Positions 7,831-64,000 of a stretch of DNA of 64,000 bases are shown piece by piece. The stretch spans positions 40,858,001 to 40,922,000 of the forward strand of contig OX597839.1 of the NCBI GenBank assembly GCA_951406725.2. The letters run 5' to 3'. The notes beneath the pieces are model-generated. The model saw nothing but the letters and a program-made list of their open reading frames with translations, ran no database searches and was not told the origin of the DNA. This DNA is from Octopus vulgaris. Taxonomy: Eukaryota. Numbering within the stretch: the stretch's first letter is position 1; each line of letters begins with the position of its first letter. Both the position numbers and the translations under genes were made by a program.

Positions 7831-8056
7831 ATTTCTTTACTACCCACAAGGGGCTAAACACAGAGAGGACGAACAAGGACAGACAAAGGGATTAAGTCGA
7901 TTATATTGACCCCAGTGCGTAACTGGTACTTATTTAATCGACCCCGAAAGGATGAAAGGCAAAGTCGACCTCGGCGGAATTTGAACTCAGAACGTAACAG
8001 TAGACGAAATACCGCTAAGCATTTCGTCCGGCGTGCTAACGTTTCTGCCAGCTCGT
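7830..8056 (-). mobile_element. tRNA-derived SINE family B, near full length
   Basis: Minus strand reads gagctggcagaaacgttagc..gagttcaaattcc (B box)..tail tttagccccttgtggg; near-identical copy at 57285-57482. Confidence 0.85.
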
Positions 8057-8124
8057 CGATGTAAACCACTTGCCCCTTTCCCTCACAATGTGCTTGCCTT
8101 GAAGCCTACAACGGACAGGCGGCC

Positions 8125-18789: not shown

Positions 18790-18801
18790 GAGAGAGAGAG
18801 A

Positions 18802-19815
18802 GCCACGATCACAAGTTATGCAGATGATACAAAAGTTTCACAGGCAATACAGAACCCTGAAGACACTAAACGCCTGCAATGTGAGCTGGACAAAATATAC
18901 AAGTGGGCTGAAAAGAATAGCATGCAGTTCAATGCTGAAAAGTTTCAAGCTTTATGCTATCAGCATGCAAAACTAAATGCAATACCCAATGAATACACTG
19001 GACCCGGAGGGATTGCAATCCCAGAGGCACAATCAGTGCGTGACCTGGGTATTTACATGAGTGATGACGCAACCTTTCATGTACATGTTGCTAAATTGGC
19101 AATGACATGTAGACGGCTGGCCGGATGGATTCTTAGAACCTTTAGAACAAGAGAATAAGAAACCATGATGGTCCTCTGGAGCACACTTGTCCTAAGCCAC
19201 TTTGACTATTGCTGTCAGCTATGGTCACCATCCAGTGTCAAGTTGATCACAGAACTTGAGGCGATCCAACGAAGCTACACGAAGAAGATAGCCTCTGTGC
19301 AGCATATAAGGTACTGAGAAAGACTCAAGCGATTAAGACTCTATTCCCTGGAGCGTAGGCGACAAAGATATGCCATAATATTCATCTGGAAGATCCTGGA
19401 AGGACTTGTCCCAAACTTTGGCATCGAGAGTTACACAAATGCCAGAACTGGGCGCCACTGCGTGGTACCAAGGACTCCAAATTTGCCATAAAGATGTAGG
19501 ACAAGATACTGTGATAGCCTGGGCTTCAGAGGCCCACAGCTCTTCAATGTCCTCCCGAAGAACCTGAGGGACCTGTATGGGGCGGATGCGGATGTCTTTA
19601 AAGTAGGACTGGATCTCTTCCTTTCAGGTGTCCCGGATGAACCAACTTCACGGTAGGAGGTGCAGATGAGGGCAGCTGCATCGAACTCTCTCAGGCACCA
19701 AATGGCAGTTGCTAAAAAGCATTCGTGAAGTAAAATCATGTAGCAACACCAAATGGCGGTGCCCCAGCATGGCCACAGCTTGTGAGCTGAAACTAGATAA
19801 AATAAAATAAAAAAA

Positions 19816-20906: not shown

Positions 20907-21890
20907 ATACTAAATAATTAGGGTTCAGCAAAGATTTGCTTTACCACATACCGAAGTTTAGAAATAGCAGCCAAAAAACGTTAGCTATTTCTTCTACTTT
21001 AAAAAGGGACCAGATATTGATTGATTTTCCTTACTTTTTCCTCTCTGCCTGTGTGGATTGTCTTCAGGTATTTTGGTTTTTCTGAGAGTCCCTTTTTAAA
21101 GTAGAAGAAATAGCTAACGTTTTTTGGCTGCTATTTCTAAACTTCGGTATGTGGTGAAGCAAATCTTTGCTGAACCCTAATTATTTAGTATTACTTAAGT
21201 TTACCATGAAATGGTCCTTTTTTCATGCCGAATTCTACTTGGTGAAATTATTGATTACTTCTTAATTAATTAATTTTACCCTTTGTTATTATTGATAATA
21301 GAATTTTCTCCCAGATAAAAACTACAGATTTTTTTCTGTAGTAGCTTACTAGTAGATACACGAGGACGGGCAGGGGAGGGTAATTGAACCTCATTCATGT
21401 TTTGAATTCGGCGGTACTAACACTGAATATTATCTGTCTGATACCGTTAGGTGGAGAGATATGTTCAATTATTCCAGTACCTTCGAATTTAATATTTCAA
21501 TATTTAATTATTGATGGGGTCCTATGCTGAAGAGGAAAGCGGTTGGTAAAGTATAATTCTATATTCTTCATTCCAACCTAATTCCGAAACGTGCGTCCAT
21601 AGGTGACCAGATATTGATTGATTTTCGTTACTTCTTCCTCTCTGCCTGTGTGGATTGTTTTCCAAGTATTTTGGTTTTTCTGGGAGTCCCTTTTTAAAGT
21701 AGAAGAAATAGCTAACATTCTTTGGTTGCTATTTCTAAACTTCGGTATGTGGTAAAGCAAATCTTTGCTGAACCCTAATTATTTAGTATCACTTAAGTTT
21801 ACCATGAATTGGTCCTTTTTTCATGCCGAATTCTACTTGGTGAAATTATTGATTGCTTCTTAATTAATTAATTTTACCTTTTGTTATTAT

Positions 21891-21892
<2 letters not shown>
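20907..21892 (+). mobile_element. Non-coding HHR retroelement (family H3): ~597-bp unit as a 1.5-mer with a 5' inverted segment, ending in (TA)n
   Basis: Direct repeats 21008-21294 and 21605-21892; 20907-21010 is the inverse of 21088-21191; HHR lies just before the second repeat. Confidence 0.88.
21521..21603 (+). ncRNA. Type I hammerhead ribozyme with canonical core
   Basis: CCUAUG-CUGAAGA-GGAA..GGUUGG...CCAACC..UUCC-GAA-ACG(UG)CGU-C-CAUAGG; GUC site, predicted cleavage after 21597. Confidence 0.9.
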
Positions 21893-21955
<63 letters not shown>

Positions 21956-30565: not shown

Positions 30566-31599
30566 ACGTATGTGATTACTTGTAAATGTGTGTACTTAAT
30601 TGTATATATGTATCTGTTCGTGTGTTTTCGTTGTCTGCTTATCTATGTTTCTGCGTGTATATGCGTCTGTATACGTATGGGCATCTGGTTCTATGTGTAT
30701 GTATGCTTTTTTATGTGTATGTGTTTCTATGTGTGCATATATGTCCTTCAGATATTTTGTGTCGTTTTTTATGCGATGCTTTGTATTTCTTGTTTTTCGT
30801 CTCTTGTTTCCATTTTTTGTCAGTTTATTCGTGTATCTGCTTTTACATTGTCTCATATTCTTAACATTATGTTTCTGCATATGTAGGTATCTATATGTTA
30901 TATTTATACATACATACATTCATACATACGTACGTGCGAGCGTGCGTACGTGTGTGTATGCTTGTGTGTAGTCAAGACACTGGGCGAGCTGCCAAAGGCT
31001 TCGTCCTTCGAACTCATTTTCCACCTGTTCACACATACTACATTCTGAAGCTTTCGAATTGAGGAGCACGTGGAAAAAAACATCCTAAGATTTAAACCAT
31101 ACAAAATGGAAGGGGAAGTAGTGATCTGAAACTCTTCAAAATCCTTCCCATTTTGACATTTATTTAAACATTAGATCAGCAATATTCGAGAAATGCAGAC
31201 TCTTCGAAAAGCACCTGTGCTGGAAATGGAATTTACTTTTTTTATCGGACATCCGAAATTTCATCAATTTAGACATTTTCACTCCATTTTGTATTCTGCT
31301 ATTCATCTTCCATCTTTCCCTTATTCTTCTATTTATTTTTTTCCTCGAAGACCCATTTTTTCCCCGCAACACTGCTATTTTCTTCACCTTATCCTTGTTG
31401 TTAGCATTTTCTCTTAATCCCACATAAATTATTTGTTCGACTTTTAATAAAATAAAAAAAAGAATTTTTCAATCTCCTGAAGCAATTTAGAGGAAGTTCA
31501 CTTCTACTAACTAAGAGTTATTCATCTTAATGATTTTACAAATATTTTTTTTCGAATAATATTTTCATAATACCACTGGACACATGAGGATGCGAATAT

Positions 31600-32000
31600 A
31601 GAACATGAAACCCTTGGTGGTCATCACAGTGTCTTTGAACACACACACAATTATGTAGTATGTTCTACGACCACACATGTGAAGTGCAAAAAGAAAAACA
31701 TTATATACCAGATTAAGTGCCAGGAAGGGACTTGCGCGGTTATCCCAGAGTCCTATATTGGTGAGACATCTAGGAGCATCAATGATAGGTTCAAAGAACA
31801 CCTGGACAATTTTACTGAGATAAAACCAAACTCCATCTTCTATAAGGATGCTGTTGACTGCCACAACGGCTCCTTAGGGAGACTTAGGTTAGACATCCTA
31901 TCTACACATGCCACTGATGAAATGCTGAGGCAAGTCAACTAAGTTGTCTTTATACAGGAATACAAGCACACCCTCAGCCGTATATCCGAATGGGGTAACA
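31600..32000 (+). pseudogene. Penelope-like element GIY-YIG endonuclease fragment
   Basis: KCKKKNIIYQIKCQEGTC...SYIGETSRSINDRFKEH..LDIL..LRQVN*VVFIQ: hallmark PLE GIY-YIG motifs with an internal stop. Confidence 0.88.
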
Positions 32001-32239
32001 CCCAGATTCCACTCGGGAGTACCCATCGATAATCACCCCTTTCTCTCATGTGTGTGCTTGTGTGTGTGTGTGTGTGTGTGTGTGTTTGTGCGCGTGCGTA
32101 TGTGTGTGAGAGAGAGTGTGTGCATGTGTGTTATAGACACCTACCTATCCTGACACGCAAACAGGTAAAGACATAGATAAATAAATAGTCAACCAGGTAG
32201 CCAGCCAGCAAGCCAGACAGACAGACAGACGGACGGACG

Positions 32240-39750: not shown

Positions 39751-39997
39751 CCACTTAAATGTGGCTAACCACTAAGGGTGGATGGTACTGTAGCTTGTAG
39801 CCCCAGGAGAACATCTTCTCCAGCTGGCTATTGACACACTTTCTGTGCCCTATCAGTATTTGCAAAGGGAATCTAGCCTTCCCATCGTCGACACATTCGT
39901 AAAATTATATAGGTTGGTGAATATTTTTAGAAATTTCACCACCATTGGCTTAGCATGTATAAAAACTCAATTGACAACAAATTTTCAATATAAAATA

Positions 39998-40198
39998 GTG
40001 TATATTTAAACACAAGAGAAAACTAGCTTTAACAGGTAATTTTTACACGCTAGAAGAAGCAGAACAAGGTAAAACTTTTTATTTTTCATTCTCTTCGAAA
40101 ATTACTCATTAAATGTGGTTTCGGTCATTTTGACTGCTTCTTCTAGCGTGTAAAAATTACGTATTAAAGGTAGTTTTCTCGTGTGTTTAAATGTACAC
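39998..40198. mobile_element. Fold-back pLTR-like element
   Basis: Inverted arms ~39998-40062 and ~40133-40198; minus strand agaaga..gtc(aaaat)gac-c-gaaac is an eroded HHR-like motif. Confidence 0.6.
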
Positions 40199-40214
40199 AT
40201 ACACACATATAATT

Positions 40215-40870
<656 letters not shown>

Positions 40871-45672: not shown

Positions 45673-46079
45673 AGGAGCCATTATTTCCAAATGGAATTCT
45701 TAAGTAAGGTGTGATTCCAAGAGAAGATGAACAGCAAAGTGAAAGTGAAAGTGAAAGTTGAAAAAGGCGGGAAGAAAAGAGGGTACGAGCTTATGGTGAT
45801 AGTAATGGCGGCGGCGACGGGAGAAAGAAAGATGTTTATCTCGTTACGAGTGCAGATTTTTAGATTATTTCTGTTGATCAGTGATCACCTACATTTTCAA
45901 GGAATTCGTTAGCAAAATTCACGGGAGTTGACGAAAATTATTATCATCGTCACAATCATCGTCATTATCGACATCGTCGTCGTCGTCAGCAACATCGTCG
46001 CCTTTGCTGTCGTTGTTTTGTACATCCATCACAGCTATGATAAAGTTTAGCTGGCAATACGTTTTATCGTCAAAATAAC

Positions 46080-47834
46080 TGTGATGTGGGTTATTCTTAA
46101 TGTTACTCATATGATGTAGATTATTTCAAATATAATTATAATGTAGGTTATTACTAAGGTCTCTGTGATGTGGGTTATTGTTAATGTTTCTCATATGATG
46201 TAGATTATTTCAAATATAATTATAATGTAGGTTATTACTAAGGTCTCTGTGATGTGGGTTATTCTTAATGTTACTCATATGATGTAGATTATTTCAAATA
46301 TAATTATAATATAGGTTATTACTAAGGTCTCTCTGATGTAGGTTATTCTTAATGTTACTCATATGATGTAGATTATTTCAATATATATTTATAATGTAGG
46401 TTATTACGAGGGGCGTTCAATAAGTAATGCCCCTGACCCACTTCCCATAGCAGTAGAGCAACGACACTTGGCACAGTTATTAGTCTTTTCCTACATAGGA
46501 ACTACCCAGAGTTATGCATTTCTCCCATCGTTTGATACAGCTCTGGAGACCGTTTTTGTAGAAGACCCCAGCTTGGTCCTCCAACCACGACGTGACTTCA
46601 GAAATCAAGGCTGCATCATCTGGGAAACGCTTTCCTTTCAAAATCAACTTCATGGCTGGGAAGAGGTGAAAATCAGAGGGTGAAAGGGGAGGAGTTCATA
46701 GCCGCACGCCTGTGCTTCTGATCTGGCGACACGCGAGTTGTGGACCGGAGCGTTGTCCTGCAGGAGGAGGATGCCTTTGCTGATCTTGCCCCGCCTCTTG
46801 ATTTTGATAGCTTCTCTTAATTTCCTCAAAAGTGAAGCATAATAGGCTCCTGTAATTGTGGTACCCTTTGCCAGGAAATCTGTCATCACTACTCCGTCCT
46901 GGTCCCAGAAGACTGTGAGCATAACCTTGTCAGCGGAGGGCTGCACCCTTGCCTTCTTTGGAGGAGGTGAGTCACGGTGCTTTCACTGCATTGACTGGGC
47001 TTTGGTCTATGGATCATAGTGATGGACCCAGGTTTCATCCTGTGTGATCAGTCTTTTGAAAAATTTTAACTCATCTTCTTGGCACATCTCCAAATTCATC
47101 CTCGAGCACTCAACGCGTTCTTGCTTCTGGAAAGGTGTGAGCAACCTGGAAATCCATCTGGCAGACACCTTTTGCATATGCAAATGGTCATGAATGATAG
47201 TTTCCACAGACCCGGTACTAATCTTGACCTTATGGGCTATTTGGCGAATAGTTATGCGTTGACCTTCCAAAATGGCAGCCTCAACTTGACGGACAGACGT
47301 CTCATCAACGGCAGAAGGGGGCGACCAGATCTGGGAGCTGTTTACACAGAGTTCCGACTATGTTTGAATTCCCAATGCCAGCGTTTTACAAGGTCATATG
47401 ATGGGGCATCATAAGTTACTTTCATTTCATCAAAAGTCTCCCGTGGTGTGTGTCCTTTCAAATACAAAAACCAGATCACTGCTCGACACTCAACAGGCTC
47501 CATTTCACACTTGACTCAGTTCAAACACATGTAAATCAGAAACCACAATTAGTTCAGAGCTGTAATTTGCCACTTAGTCTATAGAGGTATAAATAATTGC
47601 ACATGCAAAATTTCAGCTAGATCAAACAACTGCAAGTGGGTCAGGGGCATTACTTATTGAACGCCCCTCGTACTAAGGTCTCTTTGATGCAGGTTATTAT
47701 TAATGTTACTCACATGATGTAGATCATTTCAAATATAATTGTAATGTAGGTTATTACTAAGGTCTTTCTGATGTAGGTTATTCTTAATGTCACTCACGTG
47801 ATGTAGATTATTTCAAATATAATTGTAATGTAAG

Positions 47835-47840
<6 letters not shown>
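46080..47840. repeat. 84-bp satellite (3 x 28-bp subunits) split by a mariner insertion
   Basis: Period 84 from 46081; the array resumes in phase at 47671. Confidence 0.9.
46407..47670 (-). mobile_element. Full-length mariner transposon (1264 bp) with defective transposase
   Basis: Perfect 37-bp TIRs cgaggggcgttcaataagtaatgcccctgacccactt, TA duplication at 46405-6 and 47671-2; ATG at 47503; TQDETW, VMLTVFWD and QDNAP motifs; stops, and the YSPDLA motif is deleted. Confidence 0.97.
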
Positions 47841-57284: not shown

Positions 57285-57482
57285 ATTTATTGCCCACAAG
57301 GGGCTAAACATAGAAGAGACAAACAAGGACAGACAAAGGGATTAAGTCGATTACATCGACCCCAGTGCGTAACTGGTACTTATTTAATCGACCCCGAAAG
57401 GATGAAAGGCAAAGTCGACCTCTGCGGAATTTGAACTCAAAGCGTAGCTGCAGACGAAATACTGGTAAGCGTTTCGCCCAGC
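57285..57482 (-). mobile_element. SINE family B
   Basis: Near-identical to 7840-8030. Confidence 0.9.
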
Positions 57483-57522
57483 GTGGGTGTATATAATTAT
57501 ATAATTATATATATACATATAT

Positions 57523-58104
57523 ACTTCAAAAAAGGGATAAAATTTTTCGAAAAAAATTCTATCAATGGCCAGCATATTAAAAAATACCTTTAAAGGTTAA
57601 ATTTATAAACAACTTATAAACAAGAGCAAAAGAAAAAATTTCTAATGCCAAATATGCCGAAAATAGACAAATCGTCAATAACCATATAATTCATCACTAT
57701 AAGCACGCGTCTCGAAGAAAGCCGACAGAAATTTCTCAAAAATTCCGTTATTATCATATCGGCCCCGATTTCAAAGTTAATTCATAAGAATTTTCTCCTC
57801 GTCAGTGATAAATGCGGTAAGAAATAAATGAAATACTTACTTATACCCATGGAAGAAGCAAACACTAAGTCATGAGCACAATTAAGTACCCCAAATATAT
57901 CCAAAATAGAAATTCTCCAGCACACCTCGACTGAAAACTCTCAGAGTGAGAGAGTCCGGAAGTGAACACTATTAAATTTACATCTAATAAAGGATAAAAT
58001 TTTTCGAAAAATTCTATCAATGGCCAGCATATTAAAAAATACCTTTAAAGGTTAAATTTATAAACAAGGGCAAACGAAAAAAATTCTAATGCCAAATATG
58101 CCGA
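57523..58104 (-). mobile_element. Non-coding HHR retroelement (family H5): ~450-bp unit as a partial tandem
   Basis: Direct repeats 57535-57660 and 57992-58104 flank a unique segment containing the HHR; TA-rich sequence at the minus-strand 3' end. Confidence 0.82.
57751..57811 (-). ncRNA. Type I hammerhead ribozyme, near-canonical
   Basis: Minus strand: UUAUCA-CUGACGA-GGAG-aa-AAUUC(UUAU)GAAUU-aa-CUUU-GAA-AUCGG(GG)CCGAU-A-UGAUAA; AUA site at 57757. Confidence 0.8.
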
Positions 58105-58177
58105 GACAGTGAAGCGGAAGGGGTGATAAATGCATACATACATACATACATACATACATACATACATACATACATAC

Positions 58178-58624
58178 AGGGGAAGCACTCCGTCGGTTAC
58201 GACGACGAGGGTTCCGGTTGATCCGAATCAACGGAACAGCCTGCTCGTGAAATTAACGTGTAAGTGGCTGAGCACTCCACAGACACGTGTACACTTAACG
58301 TAGTTCTCGGGGATATTCAGCGTGACACAGGCCGGCCCTTTGAAATACAGGTACAACAGAAACAGGCCGGCCTTTGAAATACAGGTACAACAGAAACAGG
58401 CCGGCCCTTTGAAATACAGGTACAACAGAAACAGGAAGTAAGAGAGAGAGAAAGTTGTGGTGAAAGAGTACAGCAGGGATCACCACCATCCCCTGCCGGA
58501 GCCTCGTGGAGCTTTTAGGTGTTTTCGCTCAATAAACACTCACAACGCCCGGTCTGGGAATCGAAACCACGATCCTATGACCGCGAGTCCGCTGCCCTAA
58601 CCACTGGGCCATTGCGCCTCCACA
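58178..58624 (-). mobile_element. Full-length tRNA-derived SINE (family C variant) in (CATA)n, with an internal ~35-bp triplication
   Basis: Minus strand: tggcccagtggttagggc..ggtttcgattccc; ggccggccctttgaaatacaggtacaacagaaaca x3 at 58330-58435. Confidence 0.88.
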
Positions 58625-61140: not shown

Positions 61141-61678
61141 TTCCCCCACCCCCACCCCATCTCCCTCACCTTCCTGCCACCTCTTCTCCTTTTCTTTCTT
61201 CCCCACCCCCACCCCATCTCCCTCACCTTCCTGCCACCTCTTCTCCTCCTCTTCTTTCTTCCCCACCCCCACCCCATCTCCCTCACCTTCCTGCCACCTC
61301 TTCTCCTTTTCTTTCTTCCCCACCCCCACCCCATCTCCCTCACCTTCCTGCCACCTCTTCTCCTTTTCTTTCTTCCCCACCCCCACCCCATCTCCCTCAC
61401 CTTCCTGCCACCTCTTCTCCTTTTCTTTCTTCCCCACCCCCACCCCATCTCCCTCACCTTCCTGCCACCTCTTCTCCTTTTCTTTCTTCCCCACCCCCAC
61501 CCCATCTCCCTCACCTTCCTGCCACCTCTTCTCCTTTTCTTTCTTCCCCACCCCCACCCCATCTCCCTCACCTTCCTGCCACCTCTTCTCCTTTTCTTTC
61601 TTCCCCACCCCCACCCCATCTCCCTCACCTTCCTGCCACCTCTTCTCCTCCTCTTCTTTCTTCCCCACCCCCACCCCC
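61141..61678. repeat. 57/60-bp pyrimidine-rich minisatellite, about 9 copies
   Basis: Unit ccccacccccaccccatctccctcaccttcctgccacctcttctccttttctttctt. Confidence 0.95.
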
Positions 61679-62195: not shown

Positions 62196-62566
62196 CATAT
62201 ATACGACAGGCTTCTTTCAGTTTCCGTCTACCAAATCCACTCACAAGGCATTGGTCGGCCAGGGGCTATAGCAGAAGACACTTGCCCAAGATGCCACGCA
62301 GTGGGACTGAACCCGGAACCATGTGGTTGGTTAGCAAGCTACTTACCAGACAGCCACTCCTGCGCCTATGTAAAATGTGAGAGAAAGAAACGAAACTGTT
62401 TCTTGCAATAAATACCAATATATACAGCGAAAGCAAAATCTTTTCAGAAACCCTTCCAAATATTATTGTGGATCCCTAATTCATTATCTTACTTTATGGA
62501 CCCCACCCCGCCCCAAATCTTATATGGGCCCTCAGGGGCCATGTGAACCCCGGTTGAGAACCACTG
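61783..62566. mobile_element. Non-autonomous hAT (Charlie/MER5-like) element interrupted by a SINE
   Basis: Left cactgcttctca..tatggatccctctga, right ggttgagaaccactg; flanks atctaaac and gactaaaa resemble a decayed 8-bp TSD. Confidence 0.65.
61936..62368 (-). mobile_element. Full-length SINE family A
   Basis: Reverse complement of the 25976-26375 type. Confidence 0.92.
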
Positions 62567-62581
62567 GACTAAAAGGTAGAC

Positions 62582-63333
62582 CAGGGGTTCTCAACCATTT
62601 TTCTTTATCTATGGATCCCTCTGAATACTATTTTATTCTGGTGGACCCATGGGCCCTCCAGGGGCCATGTGAACCCCGGTTGAGAACCACTGGACTAAAA
62701 GGTAGACCAGGGATTCTCAACCATTTTCTTTTATCAATGGATCCCTCTGAATACTATTTTATTCTGGTGGACCCCTAGGCCCTCAGGGGCCATGTGAACC
62801 CCGGTTGAGAACCACTGGACTAAAAGGTAGACCAGGGATTCTCAACCATTTTCTTTTATCTATGGATCCCTCTGAATACTATTTTATTCTGGTGGACCCC
62901 TCGGCCCTCAGGGGTCATGTGAAACCCGGTTGAGAACCACTGGACTAAAAGGTAGACCAGGGGTTCTCAACCATTTTTCTTTATCTATGGATCCCTATGA
63001 ATACTATTTTATTCTGGTGGACCTCTGGGCCCTCAGGGGCCATGTGAACCCCGGTTGAGATCCACTGGACTAAAAGGTAGACCAGGGGTTCTCAATCATT
63101 TTCTTTTATCTATGGATCCCTCTGAATACTATTTTATTCTGTTGGACCTCTGGGCCCTCAGGAGCCATGTGAACCCCGGTTGAGATCCACTGGACTAAAA
63201 GGTAGACCAGGGGTTCTCAACCATTTTCTTTTATCTATGGATCCCTCTGAATACTATTTTATTCTGGTGGACCTCTGGGCCCTCCAGGGGCCATGTGAAC
63301 CCCGGTTGAGAACCACTGGACTAAGAAGTAGAC
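62582..63333. repeat. Tandem array of six 125-bp units (110-bp hAT MITE plus 15-bp spacer)
   Basis: Units start at 62582, 62708, 62833, 62958, 63083 and 63208; TIRs caggggttctcaacc and ggttgagaaccactg; spacer gactaaaaggtagac. Confidence 0.93.
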
Positions 63334-64000
63334 CAGGGAAACCAAAAAGATATGAATAAATGTGGTAGTACTGGGTGTCTGCGTCGAAAGAATTAATGAA
63401 GAACAAAAAGAAACTTTCCAGAAAATACCAAAAATGCCAGAAATATAATGTGCTATACGATACACTTTCTTTCCATTTGAAAAACACAAGAAAGATATCC
63501 ATCTACTTGATTACATAAATTATGTGTGAATGGATTTATTGTCGTCTGCTTGGCTACAAAAACAAAGGCATTATGGTTATGTATTGATGTAAGTAAATAT
63601 AATGTTACTTTAAAAGTTTTATGCTTCGGTTGTATGTTGTATGGGGTTTAATGAAGTAGGAATACGTTTCCATTACGTCAGTAAAACTAGGATTAGATAT
63701 AATTGTACAAGGAGTGAAAGACGAGTGAGAAAGTAGTGCAAATAAAACGTCGATTAAATTTTTTCAAACATGTCGGCTTCGACGTGGTTTCTGTCAACCA
63801 AATTTCTCTAACAAACGTCATAGTTGCTCTGAAGCTATTATGGTAAACATTTGCTCTGGGCGTCAGGCAATGCTACACAGCAACGTCATTATCAATCCAT
63901 CTCTACTCATGTGCATTCGCCTTGTCTTGCCCTGGGACCTTTCTGTTTGTGATGGCTGCTGGCGAGACAAACGACGTACCTTAGCTGTTTTCGGAACCAG

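Follow-up and report, generated by a model that had tools for sequence, protein, structure and literature searches.

A non-coding hammerhead-bearing element, very probably derived from Penelope-like elements, in a 64-kb stretch of Octopus vulgaris DNA

A partial-tandem element carrying a hammerhead ribozyme (HHR) motif is present at 57523..58104 of the window, by which we mean the whole 64-kb stretch of Octopus vulgaris DNA analysed here. The initial annotation had proposed such an element without giving its strand, and the analysis bore this out and placed it on the minus strand. It is a real feature of a known kind: there is ample published record of hammerheads both at the ends of Penelope-like elements (PLEs) and within short repeats of animals. 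In one form or another, as a non-autonomous unit or as a truncated autonomous PLE, it very probably derives from PLEs. More precisely, we give about an even chance to the reading that it is a non-coding, hammerhead-bearing insertion dependent on a PLE for its movement, a non-autonomous PLE derivative or non-LTR retrozyme, with a unit of ~450 nt present as a 1.3-mer and known from one copy. The parts of the element, in the 5' to 3' direction of its sense strand, are as follows.

58110..58133, minus strand: 5' junction filler, ~24 nt long, with a (TATG)n tract on one side and the upstream repeat on the other
57979..58109, minus strand: upstream copy R, partial, 5'-truncated and pseudo-LTR-like (BLAST and alignment; firm core 58104-57992)
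57818..57978, minus strand: unique non-coding arm 5' of the ribozyme, with a long hairpin at 57893-57829 (11+11 bp)
57745..57817, minus strand: extended type I hammerhead, with a 3-bp distal helix, a 3x3 loop and a 6-bp stem I (core 57811-57751)
57661..57744, minus strand: unique spacer 3' of the ribozyme
57522..57660, minus strand: downstream copy R', which is the 3' end of the element (firm core 57660-57535)
57489..57523, no strand: TA-rich microsatellite at the 3' end of the element

The direct repeat was detected by BLAST between 58104-57976 and 57660-57519 (85% with gaps, E=7e-43). Across the 113 columns of the core, R and R' differ at 3 substituted positions, and a duplication of 11 nt and a homopolymer length change of 2 nt also set them apart; in the last 13 columns 9 positions match; the last 13 nt of R' may belong to the element or to the target. 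The 5' ends of the two copies are separated by 444 bp and their 3' ends by 457 bp, the total being 1.3 units. If R and R' are assumed to have been identical at insertion, the drift amounts to ~1.3% per site per copy (95% range 0.3-3.9%). The GC content of the element is 31%.

The near identity of the two copies would also be expected if a PLE or LINE had inserted a monomer and local duplication or repair had later produced the 130-bp repeat. Short local duplications are common (11 nt within R'; tandem repeats at 46 and 62.5 kb), and LINE reverse transcriptase (RT) remnants are found in the window. However, what is duplicated is the exact 3' terminus, now standing at the 5' end, which is the outcome expected of retrotransposition from a tandem or circular template, and the same geometry, together with an inverted copy, is seen in a second hammerhead-bearing element of the window (20909-21893, plus strand; the 21-kb element). 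A later duplication is thus an unlikely origin of the repeat.

The layout had been described as that of the 21-kb element, namely repeat, unique sequence, HHR, repeat and TA. The repeats, the hammerhead and the TA end are common to both, but the real order here is repeat-unique-HHR-unique-repeat-TA. Furthermore, ~90 nt separate the ribozyme from the repeat in the present element, whereas in the 21-kb element the repeat begins 3-7 nt past the cut site; only the latter element has an inverted copy joined to it.

The features initially listed for the ribozyme were all found at 57811-57751 (minus strand): intact CUGACGA and GAAA cores, a 6-bp stem I, a 5-bp stem III with a GG loop, and the AUA triplet, after which cleavage is predicted at 57757|57756. 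CUGANGA, GAAA and U16.1-H17 follow each other in the order of a type I hammerhead, with three helices of 6, 4 and 4-5 pairs and an open-ended stem I. Stem II is closed by G.U, as had been noticed, in place of the G10.1-C11.1 pair, which is highly conserved but not universal; two stacked G.U pairs are followed by A-U and G-C, beyond which a 2x2 loop leads to another 5 pairs.

When both strands of the 64 kb were searched with a structural descriptor, exactly two sites were obtained, this one and 21527 (plus strand), and no third site appeared when one core mismatch was permitted. Beyond the descriptor, both motifs extend stem I by a 3x3 loop and then a 3-bp distal helix; their sequences differ, yet in both the 5' strand of the loop ends in U and the 3' strand reads U-purine-A. 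An internally looped extension of stem I is a canonical type I feature (PMC6155905). On the other hand, Rfam gave no hammerhead match in the element up to E=10, the folding energy of the 60-nt motif is ordinary against shuffles (z -0.39), and the G.U pair is non-canonical, as might be expected of a chance match in AT-rich repeat DNA. Such a match is nevertheless extremely improbable: the descriptor found nothing in 300 block-shuffled windows at two strict settings (7 matches in total at a loose one), nothing in 20 shuffled windows with one core mismatch allowed, and, when the element itself was shuffled 20000 times, a match in only a single case. Moreover, the distal helix lies outside the descriptor, and the partial-tandem setting is shared with the second motif. 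The 21-kb hammerhead is matched weakly by Rfam (RF00163, 22.7 bits, E=0.0011, under the cut-off of 34). In the Rfam search of the whole window, matches of miRNA models to microsatellites dominated the best 150 of 633, and generic repeat finders were likewise dominated by simple repeats.

For the folding predictions, stem III was modelled as 4 pairs with a 4-nt loop, because the folding model does not allow a loop of only 2 nt to close. The active fold then had a predicted weight of ~2% in the 73 nt and of ~0 in the full unit; it was most populated when the transcript ended no more than ~30 nt from the motif and was lost in longer contexts. A self-dimer through stem III was predicted at -12.5 kcal/mol. 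The whole unit is predicted to fold more stably than shuffles in the sense direction (z -3.1 to -4.5; antisense +0.2), as is the upstream arm 57811-57978 (sense -4.0, antisense +0.5). This strand-specific stability adds little, because z values of -3.1 or below were also reached in 13 of 78 control strand-windows (42 windows, less 3 overlapping the two elements, with 12 shuffles each). A role of the spacer as a designed anti-ribozyme was also considered and rejected: it pairs over the ribozyme in the minimum free energy structure, yet 147 of 500 shuffles also pair and 65 of 150 fold equally well.

The G.U pair at 10.1-11.1 had been suggested to be decay from G-C. Such decay is possible but disfavoured, since one given site would need a change at a drift of only ~1.3%; in addition, U11.1 is common in PLE consensus hammerheads. 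In File S2 of PMC8557442, U stands directly before GAA in 17 of 25 Hydra-clade PLE consensus hammerheads, mostly opposite U, and G follows A9 in 10 of the 25, with U11.1 in 3 of these 10 (Penelope-13_HM, Penelope-17_HM and Hydra-1_oBim). Counts from the same supplement gave a 4-bp stem III with a 1-2-nt loop in 22/25 families and A at the cut site in 10/25; they are based on 26 rows from which one duplicate was dropped, with 8 Chlamys/PLE-X rows uncounted. By these counts, the G.U pair, the tiny-loop stem III and the AUA triplet are nothing unusual for PLE hammerheads. PMC3088659 reports a U.U pair in this position, and so, for the axolotl, does PMC7229834. A C at 11.1 would sit in a CpG, and CpG transitions were modestly raised in 8 SINE copies (20/192 at CpG against 32/522 at other C/G sites). 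Strong CpG decay as the cause of the G.U pair was nonetheless discarded, in view of this modest effect and of a CpG observed/expected ratio of 0.87 in the masked window. Among confident pairs containing G, G.U accounts for 16 of 48 in the element against 11 of 63 in the 21-kb unit. The G.U pair is therefore probably a trait of the family rather than a product of decay.

Several marks of a PLE insertion are present: a partial tandem with a 5'-truncated upstream copy, a sense hammerhead near the 3' end, a (TA)n tract, and no target-site duplication seen at the element. The TA-rich microsatellite at 57489..57523 is the likely insertion target. Published PLE insertions are partial tandems truncated at the 5' end, where an inverted copy is often found; hammerheads lie in their terminal repeats, and their bias towards microsatellites conceals target duplications (PMC8557442, PMC3846280, PMC4209133). 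We assign the element to the PLE type because its partial tandem, its TA end and the lack of a target duplication match these insertions. An inverted 5' copy or a 30-40-bp tail was taken as an optional part of the signature; no inverted copy was found in the element, and the 24-nt filler stands at its 5' end and a 13-nt mismatch at its 3' end. The 5' junction opens with an exact 11-nt copy (58133-58123, minus strand) of the 5' arm of the ribozyme (57815-57805), a match reached in 9 of 3000 shuffled flanks in a test chosen post hoc.

The element contains no ORF for an RT or a GIY-YIG endonuclease, and in each of its three sense frames a stop occurs in both repeat copies. Compared with 124 PLE-like proteins, it showed no PLE protein similarity (best E=0.12 when just three short regions were searched). 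A 47-aa frame starting from the cut site was rejected as a PLE ORF: weak searches gave no Pfam or database homologue, and a stop is present in both repeats.

A coding PLE remnant lies elsewhere in the window. The stretch 31571-32011 (plus strand) encodes a 5'-truncated C-terminus of GIY-YIG type with one in-frame stop, for which HMMER found 124 homologues at E<=0.001; a word-based search with this 31.6-kb endonuclease had given nothing. The long homologues carry RT motifs and a CX4-5CxxC linker, and among 13 that were scanned, Pfam recognised GIY-YIG in 2 and RT in 1. Judged by these motifs, the homologues are read as being of Neptune/Nematis type. The genome has thus carried PLEs. A (TG)n tract lies within ~40 nt 3' of the remnant. 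The remnant cannot be taken as the partner of the element, because the two share no sequence and no hammerhead was found near the remnant. A 10-nt word is common to 32032-32041, at the 3' end of the remnant, and to the filler at 58118-58127, probably by chance (E=1.5 over the window). Directly upstream of the remnant, the T-rich stretch 30975-31560 contains a lysine-rich minus-strand frame of 102 aa with no Pfam or PLE match of note.

It is possible that the element is simply the 3' end (3' UTR plus ribozyme) of an autonomous Hydra/Neptune-type PLE, the ~450-bp unit being an accident of truncation. [quoted passage not shown] A jump of this sort fits the 9-of-13 junction match, for which only 2 equals turned up among 431 other positions in the unit; priming fits it as well. 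Hydra ribozymes lie ~90-425 nt from the 3' end, with (TA)n targets (PMC8557442), and the same measure gives ~310 nt here; the distance from stop to ribozyme, read by eye in two Hydra PLEs, is ~140-190 nt. As these distances fit the dimensions of the element, no special unit is needed if it is a truncated PLE. The three odd traits of the ribozyme are Hydra-like, most PLE insertions are truncated at the 5' end and many of them are complex (PMC8557442, PMC3846280), and a truncated C-terminal PLE endonuclease is present in the window. However, this remnant offers neither a hammerhead nor similarity to the element, and a jump would be required in both hammerhead elements of the window (2/2), neither of which reaches an ORF. 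In addition, the upstream arm has no protein similarity, and the extended stem I is of the canonical retrozyme type, not of the minimal PLE type of PMC4209133.

Both hammerhead elements (2/2) are short, ORF-less partial tandems, whereas the one PLE remnant with an ORF is simply a truncated copy; this slightly favours a fixed, non-autonomous unit. Against such a unit, one copy was seen, with one ribozyme where active retrozymes have two, and its upstream arm of 160-170 nt is no longer than the Hydra stop-to-ribozyme distance and could be plain 3' UTR. No further copies were found in the 64-kb window, nor any in prokaryotic genomes.

Three known systems come close to the element. It shares with non-LTR retrozymes (Cervera and de la Pena 2020, PMC7229834; Li et al., bioRxiv 10.64898/2026.07.22.740005) the type I hammerhead and a short, low-GC, non-coding unit, and a dependence on PLEs has been proposed for them. 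In size it comes close to the mussel units (350-390 bp) and falls within the preprint's range of 51-972 bp, although the unit of 444-457 bp exceeds the 170-400 nt range of PMC7229834. Unlike these dimers or arrays, it comprises 1.3 units with one ribozyme, and its stem III is longer; in an active retrozyme locus there are two or more units in tandem and a ribozyme in every one of them. The preprint also makes room for derived monomers.

With Hydra-clade PLEs (Craig et al. 2021, PMC8557442), the element has in common a sense ribozyme near the 3' end, the (TA)n target, U at 11.1, a long stem III with a 1-2-nt loop, and A, which is frequent there, at the cut site. These PLEs possess an RT/endonuclease ORF, which the element lacks, and its stem I is extended and canonical. 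The ribozyme of Hydra-1_Obim, from Octopus bimaculoides, has a different sequence, and the 22-nt motif of the element is absent from the available supplement of PMC8557442.

The pseudo-LTRs of PLEs with minimal hammerheads (PMC4209133; PAc of Anolis, PMC11167929) show the same partial tandem and AT-rich target, a 3' end 100-250 nt past the ribozyme, and low predicted monomer activity. Here, in contrast, the motif is not minimal (full helix III, loop 1), the duplicated part excludes the ribozyme, and there is no ORF start that runs on past 47 codons. By analogy, the element would work like a PLE-borne retrozyme; it falls outside active retrozyme loci because it has one ribozyme, and outside autonomous PLEs because it has no ORF.

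For a PLE-dependent unit of this kind, the following mechanism may be proposed. A master locus of tandem units would be transcribed, and the hammerhead would cut after AUA, probably as a dimer formed through the near-palindromic stem III, or with the help of a protein, as for PAc (PMC11167929). A PLE RT-endonuclease would nick a TA tract and start ~230 nt 3' of the cut site; the RT would copy more than one unit from circular or multimeric RNA and then stop. A circular or multimeric template has been modelled in PMC4209133, PMC7229834 and bioRxiv 10.64898/2026.07.22.740005, the last two of which also link retrozymes to PLEs. The present copy is probably a dead end; having one ribozyme only, it cannot excise a monomer by itself. 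Its ribozyme activity is not to be assumed, since for PAc cleavage was unnecessary for insertion in vitro (PMC11167929), and since only 1 of 9 tested dimers cleaved (bioRxiv 10.64898/2026.07.22.740005).

The initial annotation had further claimed that the element shares no recognisable similarity with the 21-kb element and is an independent family of the same design. Its independence of the 21-kb element and the common design are supported. In local alignments with three scorings, the sense score was equalled in 236, 260 and 30 out of 300 shuffles (for antisense, in 14, 148 and 63), the repeat arms did not rise above shuffles, and a covariance model of the upstream arm ranked the 21-kb hairpin low, 41st of 46 matches in 15-33 kb (6.1 bits, E=6.4). 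Homology of the two 3' arms was rejected: the whole-arm score was reached by 14 to 263 of 500 shuffles, at least 67 of 500 shuffles did as well in all 24 end-anchored tests, and translated frames gave 92 and 197 of 300. For the arms upstream of the ribozymes, no shuffle out of 500 reached the score under two global scorings; block shuffles over scorings and boundaries reached it 5-240 times in 2000, and an unrelated window at 31116 equalled it. At the sequence level, the similarity of these arms is thus borderline and unproven. The two elements appear as separate families at the detectable level and may have a remote common origin.

The design common to both comprises the partial tandem, a T-rich sense strand (41-44% T), the TA end and the extended hammerhead architecture. 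The 21-kb element alone has a 597-bp spacing, a G-C closed stem II, a GUC site and a 3-bp stem III, besides its inverted 5' copy and a repeat starting beside the cut site. Its upstream copy begins 3-7 nt past the equivalent of the cut site 21597|21598, which would occur by chance in ~1.3% of cases over the 597-bp unit, and the 102-nt inverted copy is joined exactly at that start. This junction looks like the result of an RT that reached a ribozyme-cut 5' end and then folded back.

A bolder reading, which we hold to be doubtful, is that the window contains two dispersed, non-autonomous PLE-borne ribozyme families whose junctions record ribozyme cleavage in vivo, the ribozyme described here being a hybrid. 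The clues for it are the 21-kb copy that stops 3-7 nt past the cut site and the present element that opens with a copy of the ribozyme 5' arm. The hybrid, if true, would combine a canonical loop-loop architecture with Hydra-type core surroundings, and the 5' ends of copies, compared with the cut site, would directly test the role of hammerheads in Penelope-type elements. Such junctions could show whether the ribozyme cuts the template during retrotransposition, a question left open in the available parts of PMC8557442 and PMC11167929. Furthermore, two unrelated short elements in 64 kb suggest that such families are common in the genome and missed by Rfam. An octopus PLE hammerhead is already in print (PMC8557442). 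For O. vulgaris, 31 recently active Penelope-like families have been reported, the word ribozyme being absent from the available text (PMC13282606). We found no report of a cephalopod retrozyme in the literature covered, an absence that carries little weight as most subscription papers lay outside it.

The surrounding window is AT-rich, and 40% of it was masked as simple repeats. In the remainder there are dispersed SINE-like repeats of several families, along with remnants of a mariner and of a LINE RT; a tRNA scan of the window found none. The SINEs presumably resemble those of octopus, though the searchable files of one SINE paper's supplement yielded no match. Two SINE-like repeats flank the element, at 57287-57485 and 58180-58620, and the left one, next to the TA tract, ends ~30 nt before the point where the copy at 7887-8060 continues. 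The LINE remnant lies at 18790-19600 (PF00078, E=2e-4). A mariner-type transposase remnant (46653-47357, minus strand; PF01359, E=3e-21) is found within 46079-47838, flanked by 84-bp tandem repeats that are partly inverted at one end. At 40215-40868 there is a pair of 100-bp inverted repeats, at 39851-40300 a strongly self-complementary stretch, and at 61159-61662 a 57-bp tandem array. Finally, at 62524-63339, a tandem array of ~125-bp units, 94-96% alike and without a hammerhead core, shows strong predicted folding (z -6 to -10).
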